DNA from: a virus
Lineage: Duplodnaviria; Heunggongvirae; Uroviricota; Caudoviricetes
IMG/VR virus record: IMGVR_UViG_3300029705_000019
Length of the DNA stretch: 64,000 nt
Reading direction: 5' to 3' (one strand)
Shown here: one piece after another, positions 2,914-20,289 of the stretch
Layout of the letters: each line of letters opens with the position of its first letter
How positions within the stretch are numbered: position 1 is the stretch's first letter
Made by a program: the position numbers and the translations under genes
Notes under the pieces: model-generated
Seen by the model: the letters and a program-made list of their open reading frames with translations, nothing else
What the model was told of the DNA's origin: nothing
Database searches by the model: none

Positions 2914-3067
2914 TTATTTAAAGTTGAACTAAAGGTCTCTCACCTTTAGGAGCAAGGGTTGGATTCGTGTGTGCACCCACTTCCAACGGTCAATAACCCT
3001 TTGTGACCAGCATTTAATTCGTTTACCTTGCTTTTTCATATCCTGTACTTTTAAGAGATTTTCTTTT

Positions 3068-3150
3068 TGGTCATCCTCATCCGATTCGAACGGATCCGTC
3101 GGCTAATGCGCCGGCCATGCTACCTACTTACACCATCGTTGGACTAATCT
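3068..3150 (-). tRNA. tRNA-like element (canonical T-arm + acceptor 3' strand + CCA; 5' half unresolved)
   Basis: ATCCG-TTCGAAT-CGGAT then GAGGATG-A-CCA. No complementary 5' strand was found within 95 nt. Confidence 0.3.
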
Positions 3151-3626
3151 CTGCCACTCTCAATTCAACCATTGTACAGATGGCTAATCAAACAAGCTGT
3201 TCCTCAAATTCCATTTACTACTACATCGCAGTTTTCAAATAGTGTTACTTAAATGCCTGTACTGCATTAGTCCTTGCCTCACACCATCAATTTTAGTAGC
3301 ACTTGTTTGTTTCATTGAGTTTGTACATTGTGGCATACTCGATATGGATCTTTACTCACTATTCAACTTTTAATGATTTTCTTTCATTTATAACACATAT
3401 AACAAGTAGTAGCGCAAGAAACCTTATCTACTTTTTAGCGCTGATAAACTTATTGTTTATTCACGGGCGCGACTTCATATCCCTGTTGATGCAACTTATT
3501 AGTTATGTGTTGTTTTATAATAACAAAGAAGCTCAGCTGAGTAACATATTAGACTCTATATACATCTACTAGAATCAATCTCTAGCGACCTTATATAGTA
3601 CATCTTTATGTCCTTCTTTATTATAC

Positions 3627-3662
3627 ATATATTATAATATGTCTCGGTTGATTAATCAACTA
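3627..3662 (-). promoter_or_regulatory. consensus sigma70-type promoter (-35 TTGATT, N17, -10 TATAAT)
   Basis: Plus-strand ATACATATATTATAATAT, then 17 nt, then AATCAACT. Confidence 0.55.
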
Positions 3663-3675
3663 AAAATCAAACATG

Positions 3676-3861
3676 TTAGTCAATCTTTGTTAAACAATTC
3701 GCTGTAAACTCTCTGGCTATAGCTTGAAACTCAACGGGTTCACACATATACCAGATTGTACCAGATTCATCAGGGCCCATATCAATAATCTTTGCTTTGA
3801 TGGGTTCCAAATCTTTACAACCCTGTACCATAACAATATCACCAATCTTGAACATGATCAA
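3676..3861 (-). CDS. hypothetical small protein
   Basis: 61-aa ORF with GGAGG about 8 nt upstream of the ATG and its own consensus promoter. A GTTGATCA motif overlaps the start codon. Confidence 0.45.
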   Translation of the reverse strand: MIMFKIGDIVMVQGCKDLEPIKAKIIDMGPDESGTIWYMCEPVEFQAIAREFTANCLTKID

Positions 3862-3885
3862 CTACCTCCATCGTTTATTACATTT

Positions 3886-3918
3886 ATATTATAATATAAA
3901 ATAGAGGATTGTTCAACT
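3886..3918 (-). promoter_or_regulatory. consensus sigma70-type promoter (-35 TTGAAC, N17, -10 TATAAT)
   Basis: Plus-strand TTATATTATAATAT, then 17 nt, then GTTCAACT. Directly upstream of ORF 3676-3861. Confidence 0.55.
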
Positions 3919-3994
3919 TAATCTAATAGAAGATCATTTTTTAATTCTATTTCATCGAAGATTTTATGCAAAATACAGTACATTGTAAAGTTTA

Positions 3995-4072
3995 TTGGTG
4001 CTCGTAGCGAGATTCGAACTCGCAAAATCATGATTTTGAGTCATGCACATATGCCAATTCTGTTACACGAGC
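3995..4072 (-). tRNA. tRNA, anticodon loop CTCAAAA (anticodon CAA as read; type I length)
   Basis: Acceptor GCTCGTG pairs with TACGAGC (one G-T), then A and CCA. T-arm is GCGAG-TTCGAAT-CTCGC. Anticodon stem is CATGA/TCATG. Confidence 0.5.
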
Positions 4073-4407
4073 GGATCCTCATATCTTAACGACTACTTGA
4101 GCCTTTACTCAACAGATATGAAAAACGGGTTACGGATACTAGATATTCCTTCCAGAGTTTACTATCAACTTTTCTTTGTTGGCACAACCTGCTCGTTATA
4201 CTTGCAACTATAACTATTTTCAAATCAATTAACAATACATATGCTGGCTTGCAGCAGAGGATAGAATTTAACTACCTTAATTGATTCCATTTGTACTTGC
4301 TCACCGTATACGAATTAGAGCTGTCTGAGCGAGTTTTATACGAGTTTTCTTTCTCAAAGTATACTAACCGAAATATGCTTCATTGAAAGCAGCTTGCATA
4401 AATTTGT

Positions 4408-4617
4408 TCATTTCTTACCAGCTGTTCTTATAAGTGCTTCCATGTAATTTGCATAAGCACGTTTTTCGATAGATCTATAAGCATCTGCACTAGAACGATC
4501 TTTGAATCGTTCAGCACGATCGGCAGCCTGAAAATAGGATCTTTTTAAGTTGTTAAGATTAGCACGTTCTCCAATCGACATCTTATTCGGATCATTTGCC
4601 ATAATAAGTTCCTCCAT
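4408..4617 (-). CDS. hypothetical protein
   Basis: 69-aa ORF with GGAGG upstream of the ATG, downstream of promoter 4635-4668. Confidence 0.45.
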   Translation of the reverse strand: MEELIMANDPNKMSIGERANLNNLKRSYFQAADRAERFKDRSSADAYRSIEKRAYANYMEALIRTAGKK

Positions 4618-4634
4618 TAGTTATCTTTACATGA

Positions 4635-4668
4635 ATTATTATATATTAAATTGATGTAATAATCAACT
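4635..4668 (-). promoter_or_regulatory. sigma70-type promoter (-35 TTGATT, N18, -10 TATAAT)
   Basis: Plus-strand ATTATATATTAAA ... AATCAACT. Confidence 0.5.
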
Positions 4669-4717
4669 AGTTTCAATGTTCATTATTTCTGTTAACTACT
4701 CTACGCCTAGACACTAT

Positions 4718-4791
4718 GTTTAATGAATGGATTCGAACCATTGACCTCGTCCTTAACTGGGACGTGCTCTGTCCTACTGAGCTACATTGTT
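4718..4791 (-). tRNA. tRNA-like gene, anticodon GTT (Asn) with A33 and a poor acceptor stem; possibly degenerate
   Basis: D-arm is TAGCTCAGTAGGACAGAGC. Anticodon stem is CGTCC/GGACG with loop CAGTTAA. T-arm is AATGG-TTCGAAT-CCATT. The acceptor strands have 2 mismatches and no CCA. Confidence 0.4.
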
Positions 4792-5602
4792 AGTTGGTCT
4801 GCGTAGCCACACCTCATCCTAACCCTTGACTTACTCTTGAAAAATTAATGCCATAAGTAAGTACCTTAAGCGCGAATTGTTTTACAGTCTTAATTTCAGC
4901 TATCTGTTCGAGGGTCTTTGACATTCACTCATATTCGTATGAGCTCGCCTCATTAACATTATAAATGAACATTGATTTTGCTGCGAATTAATGAGTGTGT
5001 AGTGAGGTCTGAGACATATCCTACATTCAACTATCATGAATGCCTTCACACTAATTAACCGAAATTTTTATATTACTCAGAACGCAATATAACTGTATGA
5101 TAGTTCATGAAGCATTAACGTAGCTCTACAGTTTTACGCAATCAAGATATCTGATAAGTATCAGTACCATTAACAGATATATCATTTCACCGTTAATAGA
5201 GTAAGTGAGCCCTTATCTTGATTGAGAATCATAAAAGGCCTTCAGCACTGCACAGCAGCCTTCGCGAAAGTTAACTAAAGAGGATTTGTTAATTGGAGGG
5301 AATGCACCCCTATGCAGTTTCGCATGTATGATTCTTCAATTGTGAAGCCTGATATAACTCCACAATTAATAATTTAACACAGCAGAGTTAAATTATTAAT
5401 TCAAGAGTTATATATGTAATAATGAGTATAAAACTTGACCCGTAACAAGAAACTTCATCATTATTAAAGTTTTTTATCAAGGAGGAAAAGGAGGTTGCAA
5501 GGTGTCTCTAAACGCAAACTTCCAGACTGTTTTGACCTTGCTGGTATGCCGACCTGCTGCATAAGTTAATTTACACTGCCCCATCAGTGTGCGTTTGTTA
5601 AG

Positions 5603-5695
5603 TGGTCCGGCAGGTGGGGGTCGAACCAACACTATGCCTTGTCAGGGTCTACGGCTTATAAGGCCGTGGCTTGAAACCAGTTAAGCTGCTGCCGG
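5603..5695 (-). tRNA. type II tRNA, anticodon loop CTTATAA (TAT as read)
   Basis: Acceptor CCGGCAG pairs with CTGCCGG, then A and CCA. T-arm is GTTGG-TTCGACC-CCCAC (one mismatch). D-stem is GCTT/AAGC. Anticodon stem is ACGGC/GCCGT. About 20-nt variable arm. Confidence 0.5.
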
Positions 5696-5698
5696 ATA

Positions 5699-6037
5699 TC
5701 ATATTTTGTACAACTCTTTCACTCTAATATTACTATTTACAACTGTGTGTATCTTAATCAATTTTTCTGGTTGTAGATTATAGATTAGTGACTGTTCATA
5801 ATTTTCAAATTCATCAAATGAGTTGAAATAATGAATCTCATCCGCATTACTAACAAATCTATCAACTAGATTATCTTGCACAGTTTGAACACGTATGCCA
5901 TAAACTCCACAATAAAGTTGTGACTCATCAAGTACACGAGCAATATATTTCTTAACGGTAGAAATTCGAGTTGTGTTATTAATCATTGAATGTTTCACCT
6001 CAACGTTTATGATATGTAGTTGCTCTAATTGAAACAT
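5699..6037 (-). CDS. hypothetical protein
   Basis: 112-aa ORF downstream of promoter 6073-6106. Confidence 0.5.
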   Translation of the reverse strand: MFQLEQLHIINVEVKHSMINNTTRISTVKKYIARVLDESQLYCGVYGIRVQTVQDNLVDRFVSNADEIHYFNSFDEFENYEQSLIYNLQPEKLIKIHTVVNSNIRVKELYKI

Positions 6038-6072
6038 CCTTTATGATTAACTATGTGATTTATTTTACGCTA

Positions 6073-6106
6073 ATATTATAAAGCAGAACCTGTTAGTGAT
6101 CAACTT
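6073..6106 (-). promoter_or_regulatory. consensus sigma70-type promoter (-35 TTGATC, N17, -10 TATAAT)
   Basis: Plus-strand TAATATTATAAAG, then 17 nt, then GATCAACT. Confidence 0.55.
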
Positions 6107-6109
6107 GAT

Positions 6110-6325
6110 TTATTCATCTTTTTCAATGTTGTCATTGTTAATTACTTCGCAAATGTCCTCAGGAAAAGATTTGCCAGCGCCATACCAGCACTTTGTATCA
6201 GGTTTATAGAGCCAGTCTTTATTAACAATACAGAAGGGTTCAAATTTTGGATTTTTTGGTGTTATATTCATGTCACCATGAAATGCTTTATATCCTTCAA
6301 CACAAATCATCTTCATAATAAACAC
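6110..6325 (-). CDS. hypothetical protein
   Basis: 71-aa ORF downstream of promoter 6346-6378. Confidence 0.45.
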   Translation of the reverse strand: MFIMKMICVEGYKAFHGDMNITPKNPKFEPFCIVNKDWLYKPDTKCWYGAGKSFPEDICEVINNDNIEKDE

Positions 6326-6345
6326 CTCATTGTTTAATTATGTTA

Positions 6346-6378
6346 ATATTATAAATTATTTATAACATTTAATCAACT
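6346..6378 (-). promoter_or_regulatory. consensus sigma70-type promoter (-35 TTGATT, N17, -10 TATAAT)
   Basis: Plus-strand TTAATATTATAAAT, then 17 nt, then AATCAACT. Confidence 0.55.
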
Positions 6379-6689
6379 ATAAATAATTATTAACAATTAT
6401 TTACAATTGTTATATGTTATAATATATTATATAAATATATTTAACATTTATTATATGAAAATCTAGAAATATTTCAACATAAGTAAGAGTTATACAACAA
6501 AACAGTATTCACCTGAGAATCATTGATTATCAAGTTTGAAAAGTGGTTTGTTTATGTTTCTTATCGATTCTATCTTTCAACTGTTTCTTTGTTGGAGTTT
6601 TTCTTGTGTAATAACCATTCCACATTGGTCTGTTTTTTCGGTTTTCTTTATCAATGTTTTTCTGTAACATGGTAAAAATGGTATCTCCA

Positions 6690-7280
6690 TTACTCAACAT
6701 CAATGATATAATTCCAGAACTCTTCATCAGTCATTTTTCTCACTTTTTGATATTCTTTATCAATCCATTTGTAGGAATAATAAATATCTGCAAAATAATT
6801 TTTTTCATATATTGTAACTTTATAATGTTTGGGCAATTTGATTTTTCCAGTATTAACAGTTATAATTGTGTATCGAATCGAACAATCATTACACAAGTGT
6901 CTTACCCAACCGAAGGTTTCAACTGTTGCTGCATCTCCGCATATACTACAAACATATTTGCTGTAAGCTTCGAATGTGCGAGTCAAATATTCAATTGATT
7001 CAGGGTAGCCCATATTGTAAAGACACATCATACCCCATTTTTCTTTTAGTTGTGAAAAAGAAAAATCATACAAATAATCAGCCTGAACAAGATGAGGTCT
7101 GATATATTTACAATACATTAGAAATAACCTGAACCATCCGTTAGGCAATTCATTGCCACAAATATATGTATAATCATACTCATCTGATGTTTTATTGCTT
7201 GATAGATTTTGTGGTATCAGGTATGGATAAAGAGAAACAAGTTGTTTGTTTTGTTCAGTTGTAAATTGCGTATTAAACAT
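6690..7280 (-). CDS. hypothetical Cys-containing protein (start trimmed to the RBS-supported Met)
   Basis: The ORF-track ORF is 6690-7319. GAGGAG sits 7 nt upstream of the ATG at 7280, which lies 2 nt after the stop of the upstream gene. CxxC pairs occur near the C-terminus. Confidence 0.5.
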   Translation of the reverse strand: MFNTQFTTEQNKQLVSLYPYLIPQNLSSNKTSDEYDYTYICGNELPNGWFRLFLMYCKYIRPHLVQADYLYDFSFSQLKEKWGMMCLYNMGYPESIEYLTRTFEAYSKYVCSICGDAATVETFGWVRHLCNDCSIRYTIITVNTGKIKLPKHYKVTIYEKNYFADIYYSYKWIDKEYQKVRKMTDEEFWNYIIDVE

Positions 7281-7599
7281 CTGATTTCTCCTCAGGAATA
7301 ATACAGACATGAGTTTCAATATTTACACCAAAGCGTTCGCCAACAGGTACCACAATGTAATCAAGTCCCTTTATCGTATCAAGAGAATTTTTCAAGCCTC
7401 TCAAGTACGCCTTAATATTTGAGACGGGAACATTATGATTAAACTCAACTGTTATGAGATTCACAATTTTGCCCTGCTCAATTTTTGAAATTTCTGATTT
7501 GATAGCTTCAGCTAGTTCATTTGGAGATCGCGTACTGTTTACATTCAAAACTTTTATTTCTCTATTCATTATAACCTCATACCTGCAAACCTTGCACAA
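7273..7599 (-). CDS. hypothetical protein
   Basis: 108-aa ORF, translationally coupled to the downstream gene. Confidence 0.5.
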   Translation of the reverse strand: MCKVCRYEVIMNREIKVLNVNSTRSPNELAEAIKSEISKIEQGKIVNLITVEFNHNVPVSNIKAYLRGLKNSLDTIKGLDYIVVPVGERFGVNIETHVCIIPEEKSDV

Positions 7600-7667
7600 C
7601 TAATTGTGCAAGGCGATTATATTTATCTTATAATTTATATATGGACTAAACTTGAGCCTAAATTTGT

Positions 7668-7850
7668 TTAGTTCTTTGTTGTAGTTCTGGAGGAATTATA
7701 CCTGTACAATGCGATAAGCAAATCTTTTGCTTCTGCAAATTGTTTATTTACACCTTCTTGTGTTTTCTCATTGCACATAGTTTTTGCAGCAGCATCAAGA
7801 AGAATGAGCGTTGATCTAAGATCATCATTAGTTACGATTTCTTTTGCCAT
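7668..7850 (-). CDS. hypothetical small protein
   Basis: 60-aa ORF. Confidence 0.35.
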   Translation of the reverse strand: MAKEIVTNDDLRSTLILLDAAAKTMCNEKTQEGVNKQFAEAKDLLIALYRYNSSRTTTKN

Positions 7851-7872
7851 TTGTAAGTTACCTACTTCCTAT

Positions 7873-8421
7873 TTATTTAATTTTAACATCGATTATATTT
7901 GATGGAACTGTTTTTATTTCAACTGTTCTAAGGTATCTAGAATAGGCTGCTGGGCAATACACATCTTTACATACAACATGACCACATTTTGTTGCAGCAT
8001 ATCGTCTTTTACCGTAGTTTGTTTCTTTACAGTATTCATTACATAATGTGATACCAAGTTCTTCTTTTGTGTGAGCTTCTGCAACGATAAAGTTACTCAA
8101 TGACATTTCAGTAACATATGTAATAACATCTTTAATTGTCAACAATGTAACTTCACGTTTACCATTCTTTGTTACAAAATTAAATTCATCGGATGTTAAA
8201 CCACAAGCCTCAAGCTCTTTATCGGTTATATTGCCATCCTTTATCTTTTTAACTTTTGTACAAATCCACTCATTAACAATTCCGCCTCTTTTTTCATCAT
8301 AAGTATACACTTTGAAGGGGCATGTTTTCTTAGGTATATTATTCTTAATAAGAGCTGTAATTTCACCGGACTCAATTTTTGAATTGATATCAGGTCTGAT
8401 GTTCATAATTATTGAATTCAT
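7873..8421 (-). CDS. hypothetical protein, paralog of 8474-9061
   Basis: Shares the motif PFKVYTY[DE]...VNEWIC and a Cys-rich C-terminus with the neighbouring gene. Confidence 0.55.
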   Translation of the reverse strand: MNSIIMNIRPDINSKIESGEITALIKNNIPKKTCPFKVYTYDEKRGGIVNEWICTKVKKIKDGNITDKELEACGLTSDEFNFVTKNGKREVTLLTIKDVITYVTEMSLSNFIVAEAHTKEELGITLCNEYCKETNYGKRRYAATKCGHVVCKDVYCPAAYSRYLRTVEIKTVPSNIIDVKIK

Positions 8422-8473
8422 TTAGTCACCTCAAACTAGTAAACGAAAATAATATACATATTCATACATGAAT

Positions 8474-9061
8474 TTACATATACTTAGATGTGTCTATTTC
8501 TTTTACACAGCACCAATTCTGTGGAGCTCTTGTAATAACTAAATTATTCTCTTCAAGATATGTTGTATATGCTTCATTGCAGAATGATCCTTCACAGCAG
8601 ATAGGTCCGCTTGGAGTTCCAACAGTCGCACGTTCACCACGTTCAGTGGGTATGCAGTATGGACACAAATCATCCATCATTTCATCAAATTCTTTTGCAG
8701 AAGGTTTAATAAATTCATGAATGAAAATTGGTTTCTTGTAAATCTTAAGATTGCTGATCTTCATTTCAGTTATATTTTTATTACCCCTGTCACAATAGCT
8801 CCATATATAATCATTTGATACGTTTGCAACTTTGGATAGATGACCTGGTAAACCCATATACATAAGCCACTCAGTCATACTATTACAGATCCATTCATTA
8901 ACGACTTTGTGACGACCAAGTCCTCCTGATTCATAGGTGTAAACTTTGAAGGGTGGTTCTAACTTAGGTGGTTTTGTTCTCAACTCAGAAGTTTTTGTAC
9001 CATCTTCGATATTGCAATTATGAATAGAATTAATTGACATTAGTACACATTTCATTACCAC
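8474..9061 (-). CDS. hypothetical protein, paralog of 7873-8421
   Basis: PPFKVYTYESGG...VVNEWICNS motif. Cys-rich C-terminus (CPYC, CCEGSFC). Confidence 0.55.
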   Translation of the reverse strand: MVMKCVLMSINSIHNCNIEDGTKTSELRTKPPKLEPPFKVYTYESGGLGRHKVVNEWICNSMTEWLMYMGLPGHLSKVANVSNDYIWSYCDRGNKNITEMKISNLKIYKKPIFIHEFIKPSAKEFDEMMDDLCPYCIPTERGERATVGTPSGPICCEGSFCNEAYTTYLEENNLVITRAPQNWCCVKEIDTSKYM

Positions 9062-9420
9062 TCTTCCTCCTCATTAGTTTCTGCTTCAATGTAATTATCT
9101 ATATCCTCATCATTGATAGGTGTGATAAAATATTCACGTTCTTCTTCACACCATTCTTCGATGCCATAACCACGGAAACAGATACGACCGGTGGGTGTAA
9201 AACCATGTTCATTATACATCCACTGATGAAACTCATCATTGAAGTAGTTGTTCGGATCTTCCTCAAAGTAACATGCAGATAACCAATCAGTTTTTCCTTC
9301 ACGAGTTGTTACCTCAATATTCCATCCTCTTACAAGACCTCTAATAAAGCCTCTATCTTCATGATCAACTGCAGTTGCCCAGATAGTGCTTGCAGGAACA
9401 TATTCGTTGAAGTTAAACAT
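9055..9420 (-). CDS. hypothetical acidic protein
   Basis: 121-aa ORF downstream of promoter 9452-9484. Confidence 0.5.
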   Translation of the reverse strand: MFNFNEYVPASTIWATAVDHEDRGFIRGLVRGWNIEVTTREGKTDWLSACYFEEDPNNYFNDEFHQWMYNEHGFTPTGRICFRGYGIEEWCEEEREYFITPINDEDIDNYIEAETNEEEEW

Positions 9421-9451
9421 AGTTGATTCTCCTCAATTATTTATTATGTTA

Positions 9452-9484
9452 ATATTATAATATAACTGTTACGTTTTATCAACT
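9452..9484 (-). promoter_or_regulatory. consensus sigma70-type promoter (-35 TTGATA, N17, -10 TATAAT)
   Basis: Plus-strand TTAATATTATAATAT, then 17 nt, then TATCAACT. Confidence 0.55.
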
Positions 9485-9485
9485 A

Positions 9486-9522
9486 AAAATAAAAAGAATG
9501 CTGTTTGATAAGCATTCTTTTA
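9486..9522. terminator. bidirectional intrinsic-terminator-like hairpin
   Basis: AAGAATGC ... GCATTCTT stem, flanked by A-runs and T-runs. Confidence 0.45.
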
Positions 9523-9801
9523 CATAAAACAATCACGCATTAAATGTTCATACCACAGAGTATCTTGCTCTTTTATTTTTTCAACAAGAATGGGTTCTTC
9601 ATCTGTTTCATATATGCCTCGATGATCAAATAGTTGACTGGATGATAATCCCGCAACAAAGTGACCGATTTTTGGCAAATAGTACATTTTCATTTCAGGA
9701 AATCTTGTTATAAGAATGTATGCAAACCACCAACAGTTTCCATCATGCCATTTACAATCAATTGACCATCTTCTGTTTATAAAATCAATAATTTCGTTCA
9801 T
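9520..9801 (-). CDS. hypothetical protein
   Basis: 93-aa ORF. Confidence 0.5.
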   Translation of the reverse strand: MNEIIDFINRRWSIDCKWHDGNCWWFAYILITRFPEMKMYYLPKIGHFVAGLSSSQLFDHRGIYETDEEPILVEKIKEQDTLWYEHLMRDCFM

Positions 9802-9929
9802 AATACTCTTTTTATTTAAGACAAGGATAAAAATTGCACCACTTTGTTAACTGGGTGATGCAAAGAACCAGTAATAGTTCTCATTCGACTTTGTTCTGAC
9901 CGAAGAAACTAATAAACAACATCTACAGC

Positions 9930-10006
9930 TGGCTGGGATAGCTGGACTCGAACCAGCGAATACAGGAGTCAAAGTCCTGTGCCTTCACCAACTTGGCGAT
10001 ATCCCA
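9930..10006 (-). tRNA. tRNA-Gln(TTG)
   Basis: Acceptor TGGGATA pairs perfectly with TATCCCA, then G and CCA. T-arm is GCTGG-TTCGAGT-CCAGC. Anticodon stem is CAGGA/TCCTG with loop CTTTGAC. Confidence 0.65.
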
Positions 10007-10124
10007 ATATATAAATGCTCAGCGTCCGAAGAACATCGTTACGTACCGACTTGTTTTTTACGGAAATAACAGCACTGGTAATTACTCAGGCCATACAATC
10101 GTAAACATAACAAACTGAGCTGAC

Positions 10125-10201
10125 TGGTACCCGTGAGAGGACTCGAACCTCCAGATTACAGATCCTAAATCTGTCGCCTATGCCAGTTCGGCTACACGGG
10201 C
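10125..10201 (-). tRNA. tRNA with anticodon TAG (Leu-type anticodon, type I length)
   Basis: Acceptor GCCCGTG pairs with CACGGGT, then A and CCA. T-arm is GGAGG-TTCGAGT-CCTCT. Anticodon stem is ACAGA/TCTGT with loop TTTAGGA. Confidence 0.55.
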
Positions 10202-11456: not shown

Positions 11457-11935
11457 TCTTTACCTCCAAGAATCTTAACAGCTTCACTTACATGACTCAA
11501 TTTGAGACCACCATCATAGAAAGATGTTTTAACAACATGTGGCATTAGGTTATATTCTGCATAGTCAAACAACTCATCATCAAGTATACAAAATTTATCA
11601 ACCCACGGATGTTCATCAAGCCAATCAACAATTCCAGCCCCACGATTAGATCCGTTGTCTGTGGTTTTATCGAGAATATCAATGTCAGCACGATAGAACG
11701 TCGCTGCAAGATACTGACCGTCCTCATTTAGATCTTCAAACTTTGTGTCAGGGTTCCAATCTAGTTTCCATGTACTTGTTAGTACAACTTTAGAATGAGT
11801 TGCATTAACAATTGCCCTTAGAAGAACAAGTTTGTTTTCTTCGATACCGTACATACCATGAATTTTTGTTTTACACTTACTATAATTTAGTACGCCGTCA
11901 ATGTCAAGAAATATTACTTTCATTATGTTCCTCAA
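11453..11935 (-). CDS. HAD-superfamily phosphatase-like protein
   Basis: N-terminal VIFLDIDGVLN matches the HAD motif I (DxDG[TV]). Confidence 0.5.
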   Translation of the reverse strand: MRNIMKVIFLDIDGVLNYSKCKTKIHGMYGIEENKLVLLRAIVNATHSKVVLTSTWKLDWNPDTKFEDLNEDGQYLAATFYRADIDILDKTTDNGSNRGAGIVDWLDEHPWVDKFCILDDELFDYAEYNLMPHVVKTSFYDGGLKLSHVSEAVKILGGKE

Positions 11936-12275
11936 AATAGAATTTTATTTTTCTCGGGTGTTCTTCAATTAGATTGTATTGAATACCAACTTTATAGATA
12001 TAGTTATCTCTCATCAACTTCATTGGTATTTCCTCAATATAACGACGAAAAGTTTCTAGAGAATGAGCACGTTTGTAATGGTTACACCTGCGACAGGATG
12101 GCATCATATTTTCAATTGATTGTATCTGATCTTCTGCATAATATTTTGTATATCTGGCATTACGTTGAGGTATCAAATGGTCGACCTGCATATCTTTATA
12201 TTCGATTTCTTTACCACAATATGCACAATGACCGTTATATTTTGCGTAGATCTGTTCACGCTCTTTCCTGGTCAT
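11904..12275 (-). CDS. HNH endonuclease (free-standing, homing-endonuclease-like)
   Basis: CAYCGK...VDHLIPQRN...CRRCNHYK is an HNH motif with flanking Cys pairs. Confidence 0.6.
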   Translation of the reverse strand: MTRKEREQIYAKYNGHCAYCGKEIEYKDMQVDHLIPQRNARYTKYYAEDQIQSIENMMPSCRRCNHYKRAHSLETFRRYIEEIPMKLMRDNYIYKVGIQYNLIEEHPRKIKFYFEEHNESNIS

Positions 12276-13176
12276 TCTTTTTCTTCTCCTCTTTCACAAT
12301 GCTGAACATATCTACGATGTTGTCCATCAGTGGAAATCTTTTTTCTGCTGTAGAACTTACACCAAATTCCTCATTTACAAGATCCACATAGAAGGTCATT
12401 GTTCCATCATCACCCATGTAAAATTCGTTCCACTCTTCTTCAGACATTAGTCTCTTTACATTGAGCTGTTCAATTGCAAGGTTATCAAAACTAATTGTAT
12501 TGAACCACTCCTTTTCAATCATTTCCGGCAACAGATCATACATATACTGAATCAGAAAATCAATATTAGAGCTATTCATGTCATAATGATCAATACCACG
12601 TCTAAAATACTTGTAACCAAGAATAAGAATTTTCAAATTATGATTCTTAAGACGATTAATAATTGATTCAGATGCACAACCAGCAATAAGATGAACAACA
12701 GCAGTCGGAAATTCCTGAAGTGCTTCAATGAGCTCATCTGTTACATGACTTACAGAAACACCAATACCATAGATAAGTTTATTGTCCCGAAGCTTACGGA
12801 AAAAGTCAAGTGACTTCAAAAAGTGATACTGATGAACAGTCATGCTCGGGATGAGCTTTAGCTCTTTACACCGATACAGAAATTCTTCGAGATCAGGGTG
12901 TTCAAGAGGATTACCTCCGCCAATAGCAATTTCAGTGTATGGGTGCATTGATTCAAAGAACTTTGCGTTCATGATATCCGCATGTTTTCCGTTAGGTACA
13001 CTATTCTCATGACACATTACACAGCCGCGGTCGCACGAGTTGGTTATTTTACAATCGATGCTTTCTGGAGACTCCGCCTCAAAGAAATCAAGATTGTTCT
13101 TGCGAATCTTTGTTCCATTATCAAGATCAATGAAACAAGTATAATTACCATTCTTGTAAGATACAAAATTACTCAT
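12256..13176 (-). CDS. radical SAM domain protein
   Basis: CDRGCVMC is a CxxxCxxC motif. It is followed by a glycine-rich AIGGGNPLEHPD stretch. Confidence 0.5.
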   Translation of the reverse strand: MSNFVSYKNGNYTCFIDLDNGTKIRKNNLDFFEAESPESIDCKITNSCDRGCVMCHENSVPNGKHADIMNAKFFESMHPYTEIAIGGGNPLEHPDLEEFLYRCKELKLIPSMTVHQYHFLKSLDFFRKLRDNKLIYGIGVSVSHVTDELIEALQEFPTAVVHLIAGCASESIINRLKNHNLKILILGYKYFRRGIDHYDMNSSNIDFLIQYMYDLLPEMIEKEWFNTISFDNLAIEQLNVKRLMSEEEWNEFYMGDDGTMTFYVDLVNEEFGVSSTAEKRFPLMDNIVDMFSIVKEEKKKNDQERA

Positions 13177-13180
13177 CTAC

Positions 13181-13546
13181 TTAATCCTCCGAATTATCGA
13201 AAAAATCAACTTCACCAAGAGATACCCAACCTACCATGTCGCAGTAGTACGCTTTATTGTCAATCACAACAACATCGCTCATACTTAAGCTATGACCACG
13301 GAAGTCAGCCGGCTGTGTTTCATAAACGTTGAACACATTAAATAATCCTTCAAGAATATCTTCATGAGGATTTGCTACAGAATAAGCTGTAATATGATCA
13401 TGCTGCCATACTTTCTTATAATCGCGAGGATTAAACAGCTTCTCATTGTACGGTCTAAATGCATAATCAACACACTCACTGTTTTCAATCTGATAAATAG
13501 CAACCTTCTTACCAACATTATCGAGAACATTATTGAGCTTTGACAT
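13181..13546 (-). CDS. hypothetical protein
   Basis: 121-aa ORF downstream of promoter 13580-13615. Confidence 0.5.
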   Translation of the reverse strand: MSKLNNVLDNVGKKVAIYQIENSECVDYAFRPYNEKLFNPRDYKKVWQHDHITAYSVANPHEDILEGLFNVFNVYETQPADFRGHSLSMSDVVVIDNKAYYCDMVGWVSLGEVDFFDNSED

Positions 13547-13579: not shown

Positions 13580-13615
13580 ATATATTATAATAAAAAACAG
13601 CAGTTTAATCAACTT
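13580..13615 (-). promoter_or_regulatory. consensus sigma70-type promoter (-35 TTGATT, N17, -10 TATAAT)
   Basis: Plus-strand CATATATATTATAATAA, then 17 nt, then AATCAACT. Overlaps a hairpin. Confidence 0.55.
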
Positions 13616-13636
13616 AAACTGCTGTTTATTTTTTAC
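13592..13636. terminator. bidirectional terminator-like hairpin
   Basis: CAGCAGTTT ... AAACTGCTG stem flanked by an A6 and a T-run. Closes the operon 17409-13650. Confidence 0.45.
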
Positions 13637-13649
13637 TGTTAGATAATAT

Positions 13650-14192
13650 TCACTCAAGTTTGAAAAGCTGTGTTCGTAACAAGAAGTCAACCTGTGTTTG
13701 AAGAACCTCCATTGTGGTGTTTACAAAAACACCATCAAATTCATAATTATCAAGCGCTGTTTCAGATGGATGTTTTAACTGTTCCTCTGTAAGATCACTC
13801 GTAAAATTCGGTCTTTCAACTCTTAAACTGTAAACTGAATCTGGGAATTCGTTTTTGATATATTCAATCTCGTTAGGAAAACGACAATCAGGAATGATAA
13901 CTACATCCCAGTGGTTTTGAAAGAATTTCAAAATTCCTGCAATGAATCTTACCCAGTAGTCAGGCTCAGCAGATCTGATAATGTCTGTTCCAACATACTG
14001 TAGCAATGTTCTTCCAGTTTCATCTTTTTCGCCATTCCAATTAAAGAATGTTCTACAGATATATTTAACAAGATCTCCGTAGTGAGTAACGAGTACCTTT
14101 TTGCCTTGAGACTCGAGTTTTGTTTTTAACATTTCTGCGGTAGTATCTTTACCGTGTCTCGCTTTACCTGAAATACAAATAATGTTCATCAA
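13650..14192 (-). CDS. deoxynucleoside monophosphate kinase (T4 gp1-like)
   Basis: N-terminal ICISGKARHGKDT matches the phage dNMP kinase P-loop (GxxxxGKDT). Confidence 0.6.
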   Translation of the reverse strand: MMNIICISGKARHGKDTTAEMLKTKLESQGKKVLVTHYGDLVKYICRTFFNWNGEKDETGRTLLQYVGTDIIRSAEPDYWVRFIAGILKFFQNHWDVVIIPDCRFPNEIEYIKNEFPDSVYSLRVERPNFTSDLTEEQLKHPSETALDNYEFDGVFVNTTMEVLQTQVDFLLRTQLFKLE

Positions 14193-14548
14193 CGTGACTC
14201 TCCATAATATCCGAAAGTGACAACTGTTTCACCGCTGTCAGTTACGAACTCCTCATAGAACTCTTCAAATTCACCACTAAAGTTTGATTCAGTGTAGAAG
14301 TCATAGTCTTCAATGAAGTTTTCAAATTTGTAACTTTCATTTTTACGGAGCTCAAGAACTGTTGCACGATCTTCTTCATCAATTTCAGCGAGCATTTCTT
14401 CAAACGTATACCATGGCTTCTTGCTTGAATACTTTTTAAAGAATAACTCACCGTTACTGAATTTTTTGTAAGTTTCTTTTGAGCACATGGTTATACTATG
14501 TACTGAGCTTGAATTTGTTTCAAAAACATTACGTCTAACTTGAATCAT
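14189..14548 (-). CDS. tandem paralog family member 1 (MIxxRxNxFETNSSSxHS N-terminus)
   Basis: MIQVRRNVFETNSSSVHSI. The C-terminus ends GETVVTFGYYGESR. Confidence 0.6.
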   Translation of the reverse strand: MIQVRRNVFETNSSSVHSITMCSKETYKKFSNGELFFKKYSSKKPWYTFEEMLAEIDEEDRATVLELRKNESYKFENFIEDYDFYTESNFSGEFEEFYEEFVTDSGETVVTFGYYGESR

Positions 14549-14573
14549 TTATATATCTCCTTAATTGAAATTT

Positions 14574-15011
14574 TTATCCATCGTATCCACCTTTACCAAA
14601 CGAAACTACTGTGTCACCATGTTCAGTTGTATGGTATTTTTCTGAATATTCACAACCTTGTTTGTAGTAATTTCTATAGTAATCATATGTGAGACCTTTT
14701 TCCATGAGAATATCGTCTTTATGAAGTGTTACATAAGTATCTATATGTTTCTGTTTGAGTATATCACTGAGATCATCCCACGGTATTTTATATGGATCAT
14801 TTTTCATATACACGTTCTTATACTGATCAACAGCCTGTACAATAAGATCCTCTTCGACCTCTTTGGTAAATGGATCGATGAATTCTTCAGTATCTACATC
14901 AAACGCAAGTAGTCCAGCTTTCCATTTATCAAATGTTTCCTTTGAACAGATAACAATTGAGTGTGTTGAAGAGCTATTAGTTTCAAATGTATTCTGTCTT
15001 ACTTGAATCAT
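14574..15011 (-). CDS. tandem paralog family member 2
   Basis: MIQVRQNTFETNSSSTHSI. The C-terminus ends GDTVVSFGKGGYDG. Confidence 0.6.
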   Translation of the reverse strand: MIQVRQNTFETNSSSTHSIVICSKETFDKWKAGLLAFDVDTEEFIDPFTKEVEEDLIVQAVDQYKNVYMKNDPYKIPWDDLSDILKQKHIDTYVTLHKDDILMEKGLTYDYYRNYYKQGCEYSEKYHTTEHGDTVVSFGKGGYDG

Positions 15012-15294
15012 TTTTAATCTCCTTTACAATAGTGGAATCAAAGATAATAATAGGTCTAACTTTTTCTTCAATGTAAGGTAGTGCTCTGATTGTATTATAA
15101 TCAATATACTGAATGGCTTCTTCCTCTGTTAAGGCTGTCTCTTCTGTTAACTCTTTTACCATCAAGTCATAGTCATATATGACTCTGCCATCGTCAGATA
15201 AACCTACAATAGAATTGTCATAACTTGGAACATTGAAAACAAAAGCTTCTTTATGTTCTTCGGCAATATAGTCTCTTAATTCATTATTAATCAT
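14983..15294 (-). CDS. hypothetical acidic protein (start trimmed)
   Basis: The ORF-track ORF 14983-15528 overlaps family member 3 out of frame. The ATG at 15294 lies directly after that gene's stop and has GGAGCGG upstream. Confidence 0.45.
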   Translation of the reverse strand: MINNELRDYIAEEHKEAFVFNVPSYDNSIVGLSDDGRVIYDYDLMVKELTEETALTEEEAIQYIDYNTIRALPYIEEKVRPIIIFDSTIVKEIKNDSSKTEYI

Positions 15295-15295
15295 A

Positions 15296-15790
15296 TCAAC
15301 CGCTCCAACAACAGTAAAATTTTCTATTTTTCTTAACATCATAATGAGTAAAGTCATAAAAATCCTCATTATCTCTGTTTCCAAAATATACAGTCCCATT
15401 GAGCATGAAATCACGCAGCTCATCATCTGTAAAGGACAAATCCTCTGTATAATATTCAGCATCCTCAAAGATGTATGGATGAGGACCATAACTACCTTCA
15501 CTTCTGAAGTCACGAATAAACAATGCATTAGGAAACAATTTTGATAACTGTTGCATTAAAGAAGTATGATACTCTTCTCCTTGATAATAAATCGTCAAAA
15601 AGTAACGAAGCTTGTCCTCAATGGAAGTATACTCTGCTTTATAAATTGATTCAGTAAAAGGATAAACAATATATTGTTTGTTAAATACATCCTCTGTACT
15701 AGTGTCCTGTTCAGAATGTTCAGCTTTGATAACAAGACAATGAGTTGAACTTGAGTTTGTTTCAAAACAGTTGCTTCTGATCTTAACCAT
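15296..15790 (-). CDS. tandem paralog family member 3
   Basis: MVKIRSNCFETNSSSTHCLVI. The start overlaps the stop of the upstream gene (TATGGTTAA). Confidence 0.6.
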   Translation of the reverse strand: MVKIRSNCFETNSSSTHCLVIKAEHSEQDTSTEDVFNKQYIVYPFTESIYKAEYTSIEDKLRYFLTIYYQGEEYHTSLMQQLSKLFPNALFIRDFRSEGSYGPHPYIFEDAEYYTEDLSFTDDELRDFMLNGTVYFGNRDNEDFYDFTHYDVKKNRKFYCCWSG

Positions 15791-16373
15791 AGATGTACTC
15801 CTTTGTACCCTTTGGAAGTTTAACAAGTTTCTGTTCCTTTAATCTACCCCAGACGCAATACTCGTCACCGTCACAAATAACAATAATGTTCTTATTGAAC
15901 AGATATTCATACCAACTTATTCCTGCCTTCTTAAGTGCTCCTGTAAATTCATGAGCTTCAGAGGAAGGCATTCCTTTATAGTCTCCTCTACAGTCTGACC
16001 AATCTACAGTTTTAAGCCAGGGCAATTCCTTCTTGAGGAAGTTTGTAACTTTATAATACTCTGTTGTCCAACGATCATAACCGTCTTTTGTCTTCTGTTT
16101 AAGATGACGAACAGGAGCATGAGCATAAAGGTACCACAATTTTGAATCAAAGTCATCAAGAACCTGGAATGGCCAACGGTTAAACCCATCCTGAAACCAG
16201 TAGTGTCTAGGTTCAAGAATATATTTACCAGGCTCATCTTTACATTCATGTAACTTCCACTTGAAACGTTCATAAATTTCTTCGGGAGTATAATAGTCAA
16301 ACCCAGGTTTTACAACAAGACTGTGTGAGCTACTGCTGTTGGTTTCAAAACAATTTTCTCTAAATTGAATCAT
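15783..16373 (-). CDS. tandem paralog family member 4
   Basis: MIQFRENCFETNSSSSHSLVV. Confidence 0.6.
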   Translation of the reverse strand: MIQFRENCFETNSSSSHSLVVKPGFDYYTPEEIYERFKWKLHECKDEPGKYILEPRHYWFQDGFNRWPFQVLDDFDSKLWYLYAHAPVRHLKQKTKDGYDRWTTEYYKVTNFLKKELPWLKTVDWSDCRGDYKGMPSSEAHEFTGALKKAGISWYEYLFNKNIIVICDGDEYCVWGRLKEQKLVKLPKGTKEYIYG

Positions 16374-16387
16374 TTTATCACCTCTAT

Positions 16388-16885
16388 TTAACCATCATAA
16401 TAGTAATGTAATGACATTTCACTAAATATAAATTCAACTGGATCATATTCAGCATAAGTATAAAATTCATCGATAGCATCATAGCTATCATCAATATATC
16501 CCCACCCATAGTTTTCATCAAACCTAATACCCTGACATCCATTGCCAAGATGCGCTATAACAGCATTTTGAATATTTGTAAATTCTTCAGTGTCATATAA
16601 TTGAGAAAGAGCATCTTTAAACTCTGCCGAATTACCACAATGATTTAGACATATTTCATTCTTTGCAGCAATTGTTTGCAAAACATAAGTTAATTTTTCA
16701 CGTTGTGAGTAATATGCATCAGTGCTACAAAAACCCATTACTTCAAGTGTAATATAACCTTCATCATCTAAAACTAAATTTGATGGTTCATAGTTTAATT
16801 GTCGTAAAAAATTAGAGGGTGTTATGCTTATGGAATGTGATGAGCTGCTGTTTGTTTCAAAACAATTATTTCTAATCTGAATCAT
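16388..16885 (-). CDS. tandem paralog family member 5
   Basis: MIQIRNNCFETNSSSSHSISI. The start is trimmed from the ORF-track Met at 16900 to match the family N-terminus. Confidence 0.55.
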   Translation of the reverse strand: MIQIRNNCFETNSSSSHSISITPSNFLRQLNYEPSNLVLDDEGYITLEVMGFCSTDAYYSQREKLTYVLQTIAAKNEICLNHCGNSAEFKDALSQLYDTEEFTNIQNAVIAHLGNGCQGIRFDENYGWGYIDDSYDAIDEFYTYAEYDPVEFIFSEMSLHYYYDG

Positions 16886-16896
16886 ATCGTTATCTC

Positions 16897-17409
16897 TCAA
16901 CCGTTGTGTTCAAAATGAATGTATGTATCAGCGCCATAAACAAGAGCAAGATATCCTCCATAAGGAATATCCCAATTCTTTAACTCCTCAATATTATAGC
17001 ACACTGAGTCGTGGTCGATGTATCCCTCAGTGTCATCACGAAGTCGAATGTGCTTACATCCCGCGTGGTCACAAATGATGTCTTCAAGCTCCTTGAACTC
17101 TTCAGACTCATATAATTTTTCTCTTGCATCTTCTATTTCTTCTTTTGATCCGTAAAAGCCATTTGCGCTCTCTAAATTCAAAATATACGCGATCTGCATA
17201 ATTATGTAAGCTAATTTTTCCATCTGAGTTTCATGATTTTCCCAACCACAAAAACCGTTGAGCTCAACCATCATAGTGGGTTCTCCGTCACAGATATCAT
17301 AATCTTCCTCAATAGGAATTTCATTTGCAACAAGACTATCATTTTTTATAGTAATGCTATGAGAAGAGCTGCTATTAGTTTCAAAGACGTTACGTCTTAC
17401 CTTTATCAT
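16897..17409 (-). CDS. tandem paralog family member 6
   Basis: MIKVRRNVFETNSSSSHSITI. Shares GFCxxxxxxxQxEKL[TA]Y with member 5. Confidence 0.6.
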   Translation of the reverse strand: MIKVRRNVFETNSSSSHSITIKNDSLVANEIPIEEDYDICDGEPTMMVELNGFCGWENHETQMEKLAYIIMQIAYILNLESANGFYGSKEEIEDAREKLYESEEFKELEDIICDHAGCKHIRLRDDTEGYIDHDSVCYNIEELKNWDIPYGGYLALVYGADTYIHFEHNG

Positions 17410-17509
17410 AATTTACCTCCATTTTTATTTAATTGCACAACTTATTACAATGTGTTGTGCAATTAGTTACAATATATCTTATACATATTATAGTTTCACT
17501 ATTAATATT

Positions 17510-17548
17510 ATTAATATTATAAATGAGCTAGTTAAAATAATCAACTAG
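17510..17548 (-). promoter_or_regulatory. consensus sigma70-type promoter (-35 TTGATT, N17, -10 TATAAT) with an overlapping inverted repeat
   Basis: Plus-strand TTAATATTATAAATG, then 17 nt, then AATCAACT. A GAGCTAGTT...AACTAGCTC inverted repeat spans the -35. Confidence 0.55.
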
Positions 17549-17565
17549 CTCATTCATATCTTTAA

Positions 17566-17817
17566 TTATTCATTTATGTAGTTCAACGTATCAAGAATGA
17601 TATCACCCACGTCAACCTTGTTGGTAGGAATAATGAAGAAGAAGTCATCACCAATGTTGAAAACGAAGTTTGAGCAATTAGTGAGCTTACCAGTCTTCAC
17701 ATTGTAGCTCTTGTAGCCACCGCTGGTCTTTACAGCGATTCTACCGTTCATCGTAAGTCGGCACATACCGGCACCGAGCTTACCAAACATACCGTTAAAG
17801 CAATTCATCATATCCAT
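17566..17817 (-). CDS. hypothetical protein
   Basis: 83-aa ORF downstream of promoter 17851-17886. Confidence 0.45.
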   Translation of the reverse strand: MDMMNCFNGMFGKLGAGMCRLTMNGRIAVKTSGGYKSYNVKTGKLTNCSNFVFNIGDDFFFIIPTNKVDVGDIILDTLNYINE

Positions 17818-17850: not shown

Positions 17851-17886
17851 AATATTATATATTGAAACTGTTATTTAATCAACTAT
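17851..17886 (-). promoter_or_regulatory. sigma70-type promoter (-35 TTGATT, N18, -10 TATAAT)
   Basis: Plus-strand CTAATATTATATATTG ... TTAATCAACT. Confidence 0.5.
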
Positions 17887-18715
17887 CTTTTCGTTGAATG
17901 TGCTGTTCTATGTAATTGCGGTCCTGTGAGAAAATAGGACATTCTTTATCTAGAATCCATTCCTTCTTATATCCGATAAGTCTATCAACGCAAGGAACTT
18001 CTTTTCTATAACAACAGATGCCACGCTTGAACTCAGTGGGCATATCGTTGAAGTTGATTCCCTGCTCTAAGAATAGCATATCTTGAATGTCATTGCTGGA
18101 CTTGTGCTCAAGAAGTTTGTGACTGAAATAAGTCTGACCGAGCATCTGAATAGCATTACGCGTTGCATCCTGTTGACGCCAAATAAAGCAATTACAAACT
18201 TCCTCCTCAGGAATTACAAACACTCTTGAATCAAATAATGCACCTTTTTCTATTGCATTCTTATAAACTGAAATCAATTTTTCATCTGTAGAATTACAAT
18301 TAGCTGTTTCTGGATCAACTGATACGCAGTCAATAAATTCTGCAACAGCGTCACTGAAAAATCTGTTAAATGCAAATGTTGCCATACTTGCAGAAACACT
18401 ACACATCTTTTGAAGATTATAATCAAACCAACCACTAGTGTCAATTTTATCATAATCAGTGATAAGCAAACTTATTTCATCAGACTGAGTATAACCAAAT
18501 TTACATCCTTGAATGTTTTTACAAAGATACTGAAGTGTTTCGTTCATTGCCACATGAAACACTTCATCATATGGTCGCTTAAAATGTTTTGTGAATGAAT
18601 GAAATGCTTTCCCATCAATTCGAATCATAACTGGAGTTCGTCTTGTGAGATACGTCTTACTTCTGTTCTCATAGAACTCTTTCATACGGTCACCAAGTGA
18701 ATCTTTGGTTGCCAA
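17879..18715 (-). CDS. Thg1-like protein (tRNA-His guanylyltransferase family, 3'-5' nucleotidyltransferase)
   Basis: N-terminal DRMKEFY...MIRIDGKAFHSFTKHF matches the Thg1/TLP signature (R[IV]DGxxFHxFT). Confidence 0.65.
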   Translation of the reverse strand: MATKDSLGDRMKEFYENRSKTYLTRRTPVMIRIDGKAFHSFTKHFKRPYDEVFHVAMNETLQYLCKNIQGCKFGYTQSDEISLLITDYDKIDTSGWFDYNLQKMCSVSASMATFAFNRFFSDAVAEFIDCVSVDPETANCNSTDEKLISVYKNAIEKGALFDSRVFVIPEEEVCNCFIWRQQDATRNAIQMLGQTYFSHKLLEHKSSNDIQDMLFLEQGINFNDMPTEFKRGICCYRKEVPCVDRLIGYKKEWILDKECPIFSQDRNYIEQHIQRKDS

Positions 18716-20103: not shown

Positions 20104-20289
20104 TTATCTCTTCTTCTTTTTCATTCTCTTCATTGCCAAGTCATCTTTTGCTCGTCTCTTCTGAGAAGGGCTGAGATAGTATTCACGTCTGCGCAGCTCC
20201 TGAATCAGTCCGTCGTTGTTAACAGACTTCTTAAAGCGTCTGAGCATAGAATCAAATGACTCATTAGGCTTCGGAACAACCTTTGCCAT
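20104..20289 (-). CDS. rpsU: ribosomal protein bS21 homolog
   Basis: MAKVVPKPNESFDSMLRRFKKSV...LIQELRRREYYLSPSQKRRAK aligns with bacterial S21 (..V.ENE.FD.ALRRFKRS....G......RRREFYEKP...RKRAK). Confidence 0.7.
   Translation of the reverse strand: MAKVVPKPNESFDSMLRRFKKSVNNDGLIQELRRREYYLSPSQKRRAKDDLAMKRMKKKKR

Follow-up and report, generated by a model that had tools for sequence, protein, structure and literature searches.

The DNA analysed here is a stretch of 64,000 nucleotides (hereafter the window) from a virus of the class Caudoviricetes (IMG/VR record IMGVR_UViG_3300029705_000019), in which six tandem genes encode proteins with a nearly identical N-terminal peptide, referred to below as the tag. 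The array makes up only half of a two-part system; the decisive partner, which was overlooked in the first-pass annotation of the window and is situated outside the interval flagged there, is a gene for a radical S-adenosylmethionine (radical-SAM, rSAM) enzyme. The tag is invariant on bodies that are unrelated to each other, it is linked co-directionally to the rSAM gene when either of the two is taken as the starting point, the modelled enzyme lies near peptide-modifying rSAM enzymes, and tag and enzyme covary. We regard it as an even chance that one rSAM maturase serves several tagged client proteins, with the tag acting both as docking peptide and as modification site. The wider proposal, that large phages share an undescribed protein-maturation system in which a single-cluster rSAM enzyme reads the tag and covalently modifies several unrelated phage proteins, is held with slightly less than even confidence.

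The six consecutive open reading frames (ORFs) of the array (14189-17409; M1 to M6 in Table 1) all carry the tag, with the shared start M-[IV]-[QK]-h-R-x-N-x-FETNSSS-x-H, as had been described in the first-pass annotation for six tandem minus-strand genes. The same six products, together with a 124-aa acidic ORF, were called by JGI on the source contig (3300031555 Ga0318466_10000086, 410,186 bp). A six-frame scan of the 64-kb window found FETNSSS only at the six array N-termini, and the back-translated pattern TTYGARACNAAYWSNWSNWSNNNNCAY gave 6 matches vs 0.00 expected (100 shuffles). The three serine codons alternate between the AGY and TCN families across the paralogues and each of the six genes is preceded by its own GGAG-like ribosome-binding site, so the conservation of FETNSSS is attributed to selection on the peptide and not to a DNA repeat or recent gene conversion. 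Translational coupling, which had been proposed for several members, was seen at some of the junctions: the start of M3 overlaps the stop of M4 by 8 nt, and a start/stop overlap is also present between M1 and the deoxynucleoside monophosphate (dNMP) kinase gene, while there is none at the M6/M5 junction.

Table 1. Positions of the array genes, the rSAM gene and adjoining features in the window.
Feature	Position	Strand	Description
YodL-like ORF	13181-13546	minus	121 aa; between hairpin and rSAM gene; syntenic in contig L001; context only
rSAM enzyme	12256-13176	minus	306 aa; proposed partner/maturase; about 1 kb downstream of array
Hairpin	13595-13627	.	14-bp stem, T-runs on both strands, terminator-like; between dNMP kinase and YodL-like genes
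dNMP kinase	13650-14192	minus	between array and rSAM gene; context only
M1	14189-14548	minus	S-class tag protein, 119 aa; C-terminal end ...GETVVTFGYYGESR
M2	14574-15011	minus	S-class tag protein, 145 aa, acidic; C-terminal end ...GDTVVSFGKGGYDG
Acidic ORF without tag	14983-15357	minus	124 aa; phrog_13182 (unknown function); JGI gene call; outside the tag family
M3	15296-15790	minus	divergent L-class tag protein, 164 aa; YFGNRDNED
M4	15783-16373	minus	L-class tag protein, 196 aa; subtype with IIVICDGDEYCVW
M5	16388-16885	minus	L-class tag protein, 165 aa; nearest paralogue M6
M6	16897-17409	minus	L-class tag protein, 170 aa; GFCGW, KLAY, GYIDHDS; C-terminal ...FEHNG
Promoter match	17516-17544	minus	sigma-70-like, TTGATT-17-TATAAT, 10/12, upstream of M6; weak evidence

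The tag extends over ~20 residues and is composed of a leader (8 residues in the window phage, M-I-Q/K-h-R-x-N-x), the segment F-E-T-N-S-S-S-x-H and the first beta-strand of the body. In 171 unique sequences, in which the bodies are 20-40% identical, the consensus is R-x3-FETNSSS-x-H; R(-4), F, E, N, S, S, S, and H are 100% conserved, T is present in 167/171, and F sits 8 or 9 residues from Met1. Rare variants (e.g., FETNSSHEH or FETNSSAVH) occur. A search of 1.84 billion proteins with a 40-column tag profile retrieved 5,384 representatives (50% identity), and among the matches listed for this profile the alignment starts within the first few residues in almost all. In the AlphaFold2 (AF2) model of M6 (pLDDT 85 and pTM 0.83 overall), residues 1-12 fall below pLDDT 50 and are not packed onto the body, and the first strand begins at residue 14. 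No natural fusion of a tag protein to an rSAM enzyme was seen. Two metagenomic proteins, P0186 and P0252, are apparent tag-tag fusions in which the second tag is internal; they look like read-through of two neighbouring tag genes and could be gene-call artefacts or originate from phages with a reassigned stop codon.

The inability of the first-pass annotation to place the motif in a known family was borne out by every library searched. Scans of the six array proteins and 16 further members against Pfam, NCBIfam, and PADLOC gave no significant match, and the sole PHROGs match of the tag proteins was phrog_28997 ("unknown function"), over the N-terminus alone (E about 5e-4). PDB profile searches with alignments of the L class, the S class (both described below), and the M6 group gave nothing significant, the best being CdiA (E 0.02), a flavodoxin (E 0.08), and a head-tail connector (E 0.57); likewise, neither profile nor fold comparison with the PDB and curated families gave a significant match for the tag proteins. 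Among GenBank phages, the locus had no match by megablast and M6 had none by tblastn, and the tag family was detected there only by way of the rSAM. A literature search returned no relevant account of the tag motif, or of the rSAM in phages, RNA repair or megaphages. Neither the tag proteins nor the pairing of tag and rSAM is covered by a family model, a structure or a publication. Several known families were considered for the tag proteins and dropped on the order or spacing of their motifs, namely QueD/PTPS (F-x-F-S-A-A-H), DEDD exonuclease (D-x-E-T-T-G), Toprim, HAD, vWA MIDAS, 2H phosphoesterase, calcineurin-like phosphoesterase, and the clients of the His-Xaa-Ser system.

The linkage of tag genes to the rSAM gene was established from both sides. 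When 83 viral loci were retrieved by the tag pattern alone and their same-strand ORFs were clustered, an rSAM cluster (median 304 aa) was present in 82/83, separated by a median of 21 bp from the last tag gene upstream of it; the single locus without this cluster is cut by the contig end. When viral loci were instead picked by rSAM motifs alone, strict tag genes were present in 77/79; all of them lie on the rSAM strand and 149/151 lie upstream of the rSAM gene. One of the two exceptions is at a contig end and the other is locus L164. Loci from genomes and metagenome-assembled genomes (MAGs) found by FETNSSS[TSM]H carry the rSAM in 57/75 cases, and in about 10 of the 18 others a contig edge cuts the locus soon after its final tag gene. 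A typical module combines one L and one S gene with the rSAM gene, and between 1 and 6 tag genes accompany a single rSAM. Whereas the dNMP kinase gene intervenes in the window, most other phages have the rSAM gene right behind the last tag gene.

Among GenBank phages, the rSAM was found only in the Prevotella Lak megaphages and the Microcystis Ma-LMM01 group, in both cases with adjoining tag genes. Lak-B7 has four tag genes beside the rSAM, whereas in Ma-LMM01 gp130 (annotated as hypothetical) is a tag gene and gp128 (annotated as "Fe-S oxidoreductase") is the rSAM. The pairing is also found in a phage-gene region of an isolate, Eubacterium plexicaudatum ASF492. Directly upstream of gp130 in Ma-LMM01 lies gp131 (L085 6049-6849), whose annotation as "histidyl tRNA synthetase" looks doubtful because it has no Pfam match at E<=0.001.

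These genomic surroundings bear on the suggestion in the first-pass annotation that the six proteins are internal or ejected proteins. The tag would then be a capsid-targeting and prohead-protease processing signal of the T4 internal-protein type, and the six proteins would be packaged and ejected. The array does encode several small proteins with one common leader, and V-F-E at the end of a leader of ~10 residues resembles the T4 [LI]-x-E cleavage context. However, TNSSSxH, which lies past the putative V-F-E cut (positions 8-10), is conserved at 98-100% and forms the conservation peak, and the first beta-strand of the fold begins inside the tag in the AF2 model of M6. Moreover, the genes are coupled to the rSAM rather than to head or protease genes, and they are located among genes of nucleotide and RNA metabolism. 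In Ma-LMM01, the gp128-130 region falls outside the listed gene groups, i.e., the early genes (gp054-063), gp037-041, and the three late genes named (gp086, gp087, and gp091; PMC5780444). We consider packaging of the six proteins to be highly improbable and see no support for it.

The rSAM enzyme of the window belongs to the superfamily by its CX3CX2C motif (C48/C52/C55) in a partial TIM-barrel core. These three core-cluster cysteines are the only invariant cysteines in the rSAM alignment (C103 is kept only among close relatives), and the C-terminal auxiliary-cluster cysteines of SPASM/twitch proteins are absent from it. Ahead of the core is an N-terminal extension of ~35 aa with three beta-strands. 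In fold comparison, the nearest structures to the rSAM model are the peptide maturases SkfB and SuiB, followed by viperin (15.7), EpeE/YydG (15.3), BlsE (15.0), ChlB (14.9), anSME (14.7), and CteB (13.6), while the activases and nucleic acid-modifying rSAMs are much farther away (PFL-AE 10.4, RlmN 10.0, QueE 9.0, and SPL 7.8). Because the auxiliary clusters are absent, the chemistry of SkfB, SuiB or anSME is not simply transferable to this enzyme. Sequence profiles detect only the generic rSAM core in it; in PHROGs it matches phrog_16999 ("Fe-S oxidoreductase," E 2e-48), and the rSAM family comprises 7,030 clusters at 90% identity, none of which is named. Weak NCBIfam matches to HxsC of the His-Xaa-Ser system and to other maturases (~20 bits vs cutoffs of 230-400 bits or more) were rejected.

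The bodies behind the tag fall into at least three types without mutual homology (L, S, and the Cys-rich X). When the first 24 residues were removed, 205 family members collapsed into two superclusters, L (median 191 aa), which includes M6, M5, and M4, and which M3 joins via its orthologue L001_A2, and S (median 128 aa), which includes M2 and M1. Within the window, the L-class proteins have about 164-196 aa and the acidic S-class proteins about 119-145 aa. Profile-profile comparison of L and S gave an alignment limited to the first ~39 residues, confirming that one leader stands on non-homologous bodies. The patchy similarities between bodies noted in the first-pass annotation turned out to be class signatures, G[DE]xVV[AST]FG..G for S and GFCGW/GEFGW with KLxY for L. 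The L class further shares G-Y-I-D-H, LxxFLF, and hhhh-G-N-D-N, with YKGN as a frequent C-terminus, and the S class shares HSITMC..Y..W..GE and E.F...YTTPSGE.VVAFG.YG.DG. With a body-only L profile, 82/88 matches carry the tag and the other 6 are truncated gene calls, so that no tag-less L-body homologue was found among the 88. The X body (~310 aa) is tagged and is usually encoded by a single gene before the rSAM gene in several Clostridia contigs; its motif CCxYFxxxCLDECxCGxE was noted in the MAG contigs L118, L126, L129, L137, L140, L150, and L159, and this class may bind a metal or an Fe-S cluster. Client C-termini are rich in Gly and aromatic residues (YKGN, FGYYGYDG, and FEFNG; e.g., window 14189-14203 and 14574-14588), and a Gly is present within the last 5 residues in 76% of tag proteins vs 25% of background ORFs.

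The same six-gene array was found on the phage contig L001 (~217 kb) in a matching neighbourhood, with the shared order Thg1, array, dNMP kinase, YodL, rSAM, and HAD_SAK_2. Orthologue identities are 41% for M6 and A1, 41% for M4 and A3 (120 bits), 40% for M2 and A5, 34% for M1 and A6, and 26% for M3 and A2; M4 also matches L003_B2. The array orthologues are thus 26-41% identical between the two phages; the flanking enzymes reach 51-76% and other small accessory ORFs 32-44%. Because the orthologues are one-to-one in a conserved neighbourhood and their identity is near that of other small ORFs, the array is judged to be an old and stable expansion and not a fast-evolving one. The first-pass view of rapidly diversifying bodies therefore gives way to two conserved classes with orthologues in distant phages.

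Leader and enzyme vary together. Leader length (8 or 9) is concordant within loci in 303/339 pairs vs an expected fraction of 0.48, and most of the within-locus disagreements are start-codon ambiguities. At the variable leader positions, L and S tags are more alike within the same genome (identity 0.52) than between different genomes (0.39), a value reached by 0/2000 permutations, whereas the positions after the motif show almost no same-genome effect (0.44 vs 0.40). In 135 unique rSAMs, the columns most informative on leader length are 27, 29, and 31, which have i/i+2 spacing and are located in the N-terminal extension just past its third strand. N27 occurs with 8-residue leaders in 62/62 and T/S27 with 9-residue leaders in 59/63, and as the longer leaders gain a basic residue, the enzyme gains D29 and E31. 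The data carry phylogenetic structure; on the rSAM tree, the leader-length class changes about 7 times by parsimony, and the pattern recurs at at least three separate switches. The homogenisation of leaders within genomes and their covariation with the rSAM N-terminus are suggestive of contact between tag and enzyme, short of proof.

In the proposed mechanism, the flexible tag would dock on the small N-terminal beta-sheet extension of the rSAM, which, via its single [4Fe-4S]/SAM site, would modify a residue in or beside E-T-N-S-S-S-x-H. One enzyme would mature several different proteins (in the window, four of the L class and two of the S class), and the gene-cluster logic of the ribosomally made, post-translationally modified peptides (RiPPs) would be extended to whole folded proteins. 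With a confidence that stops just short of even, we take the clients of such a maturation system to be the enzyme-like L, the small acidic S, and the Cys-rich X proteins, of which the window array would be the most expanded set seen. We infer, rather than observe, the physical docking of tag and rSAM, the status of the tag as substrate and not as subunit interface, the site and chemistry of the modification, and the role of the matured proteins in infection.

Several observations weigh against a maturase with tagged clients. Gene linkage is equally compatible with the tag proteins being subunits or pathway partners of the enzyme. It also has gaps, in that L164 has an rSAM and no tag gene in the 7 kb upstream, and roughly seven long tag loci (including L088, L114, L122, and L132) have no rSAM within the fetched flanks; in the window itself, a terminator-like hairpin and two genes lie between the array and the rSAM gene. 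The covariation comes from few independent events and has exceptions (L051 and L157/L081). Folded proteins of 95-320 aa make up the client set, and neither a protease nor a RiPP recognition element (RRE) domain was identified. Finally, the conserved polar motifs of the L class (GEFGW, GYIDH, and GNDN) resemble an active site, which might include the residues of the tag.

A different explanation, close to the metal- or nucleotide-binding N-terminal module offered as one option in the first-pass annotation, takes up the last point: the tag would be an intrinsic loop (beta-strand, Ser/Thr-rich loop, and His) for binding phosphate, nucleotide or metal, and the linkage would reflect a shared pathway or complex. 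We think this unlikely, and grant no higher probability to its extension, that the L and S proteins are small enzymes or cofactor carriers in a pathway of the rSAM (e.g., a nucleotide or RNA pathway). The L class does keep active site-like polar motifs (GEFGW, Y68, G-Y-I-D-H, and hhhh-G-N-D-N with a nearly invariant D), and the tag residues R, E, N, S, S, S, and H would fit a phosphoryl-binding site; yet the S class lacks the L-class motifs and its tag is still 100% kept. The occurrence of one invariant tag on three bodies whose detectable homology ends after ~39 residues also argues against a binding loop, as 20 residues would hardly make an autonomous catalytic site, and AF2 leaves residues 1-12 of M6 unpacked on the body. 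Flavodoxin and NrdI open with a beta-strand followed by a Ser/Thr-rich loop that binds the phosphate of flavin mononucleotide (FMN), at a similar distance from Met1, and the S-class profile weakly matches a Clostridium flavodoxin over ...SGxKVxxFGxYG (E 0.08), but the flavodoxin Pfam models were matched by 0/32 S-class members even at E<=10. A flavodoxin/NrdI-like identity of the S class as a redox partner of the rSAM, i.e., a fold with the N-terminal FMN loop [ST]-x-[ST]-G-x-T, is not backed by these scans. A cofactor loop would suit both the structural closeness of the rSAM model to viperin and BlsE, which modify nucleotides, and the nucleotide- and RNA-metabolism neighbours in many phages, while the within-genome homogenisation of leaders and their covariation with the rSAM N-terminus point instead to contact with the enzyme.

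The neighbouring genes also raise the question of whether the module belongs to phage RNA or tRNA repair or modification, with the rSAM acting on RNA (e.g., to restore or install a modified base) and the tagged proteins being RNA-binding or end-processing adaptors recruited by the tag. A Thg1-like 3'-5' polymerase is encoded in the window (17879-18715) and in 25 other loci, and the window also contains HAD_SAK_2 and a tRNA cluster. A fusion of AAA_33 kinase and HD phosphatase is present in 37 loci, an RlaP nucleotidyltransferase in 28, and a T4 Rnl1-like RNA ligase in 21, and the ASF492 element carries HD proteins, a CCA-adding enzyme, and a DHH phosphoesterase. Nevertheless, each such neighbour is found in no more than ~45% of loci, compared with ~100% for the rSAM, and family scans detected no RNA-binding domain in any tag protein. 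The L-class profile weakly matches a CdiA tRNA nuclease over the G-Y-x-D-H segment (E 0.02-0.04), but this match is not significant and is unsupported by fold search. We consider a role in RNA repair or modification to be decidedly unlikely.

Transcription of the array was re-examined with respect to the unit outlined in the first-pass annotation. The hairpin said to close this unit (13592-13636) is present (Table 1). The one consensus promoter placed at 17510-17548 corresponds to an existing sigma-70-like match, but 42 such sites were found vs 30.8 expected in the 7-kb AT-rich stretch, and because they are so common there, transcription from a single promoter is only weakly supported. Just upstream of the array, an 83-aa ORF (17566-17817), which had no match in family scans, shares 92% identity with residues 1-75 of a 210-aa ORF of L001, in contrast to the flanking enzymes of the two phages (only 51-76% identical). 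On the other side, the last 20 nt of the rSAM gene are shared with an HNH endonuclease ORF (11904-12275), which is probably a mobile insertion and for which L001 had no recorded HNH match at the equivalent site. A ribosomal protein S21 gene (~20104-20289; precomputed Pfam matches on JGI calls) lies beside genes for ThyX and an FAD-dependent oxidoreductase. Eight to nine minus-strand tRNA genes, including two for tRNA-Ile(TAT) as well as Ser and Ile genes of unusual length (90+ nt), are located at 223-10201; the genes between ~900 and 5700 are spaced by ~1-kb stretches without an ORF of at least 70 aa. In L003, a related 213-kb phage, a gene for an Acb2/Tad1-like anti-CBASS/Thoeris sponge (4973-5338) lies ~3 kb upstream of the first tag gene.

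The module is abundant, with about 5,400 tag-protein clusters (50% identity) and >7,000 rSAM clusters (90% identity), and its hosts include the Lak megaphages, the only long-cultured Microcystis phage lineage, and gut phages of 100-400 kb; it is found in guts, rumens, and freshwater cyanobacteria. If the rSAM modifies the tag, the tagged proteins would form a class of rSAM protein substrates that is new and has a clearly delimited recognition motif, of interest to rSAM enzymology and possibly usable as a portable protein tag, and thousands of phage "hypothetical proteins" would gain their first functional handle. If the tag is a cofactor loop, it would define a small module, likewise new, that binds nucleotide or metal and is connected with rSAM chemistry.

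The phage module was compared with several known systems. The rSAM enzymes anSME and AtsB act on Ser or Cys of sulfatases. Their target motif (C/S)-x-P-x-R is absent from the tag R-x3-F-E-T-N-S-S-S-x-H-S, which has no P-x-R, and in addition the phage rSAM has no SPASM auxiliary clusters and its clients are unrelated to sulfatases. The glycyl-radical activases (PFL-AE and NrdG) are, as proposed for the phage rSAM, single-cluster enzymes without auxiliary clusters that act on a folded protein, and the C-termini of the phage clients are likewise rich in Gly and aromatic residues; however, the RVxG[FY] loop near the client C-terminus was not found, and the conserved motif of the phage clients is N-terminal and without Gly. 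The T4 internal proteins share with the array the layout of tandem small proteins with an N-terminal leader of ~10 residues ending in hydrophobic-x-Glu. While their sequence after the cut is not conserved, the phage tag is conserved past that site, its genes are linked to the rSAM and not to head genes, and the bodies are conserved between distant phages. The only library families touching tag and rSAM, phrog_28997 and phrog_16999, have no function and do not record the pairing.

The closest likeness is to the RiPP systems. In these, the gene of one rSAM maturase is immediately preceded by the precursor genes, whose products share a recognition sequence, and the layout of one enzyme with many precursors is best known from the prochlorosins. 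As with the RiPP rSAM maturases (SkfB/SkfA, SuiB/SuiA, ChlB, CteB, and PqqE/PqqA), the phage rSAM gene is immediately downstream of 1-6 co-directional genes that share a leader, and adjacent co-directional precursor-like genes with a conserved recognition sequence were indeed found (82/83 and 77/79 loci; 149/151 upstream). The phage rSAM model is structurally nearest to SkfB and SuiB, and its N-terminal extension covaries with the leader. On the other hand, there is no short precursor, no protease recurs among the neighbours, and no RRE or exporter was recognisable. RiPP precursors are peptides, while the phage clients fold into proteins of 95-320 aa with bodies of at least three classes, and their invariant part is the tag itself and not a variable core. 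The enzyme differs from the SPASM/twitch maturases in having no auxiliary-cluster cysteines, and the module lives in large lytic phages and megaphages. By analogy, the system would fit the familiar scheme of an rSAM maturase that acts on leader-bearing substrates of its own, and what appears to be new is an enzyme without SPASM/twitch clusters that is borne by phages and serves folded clients of several classes through one invariant tag.

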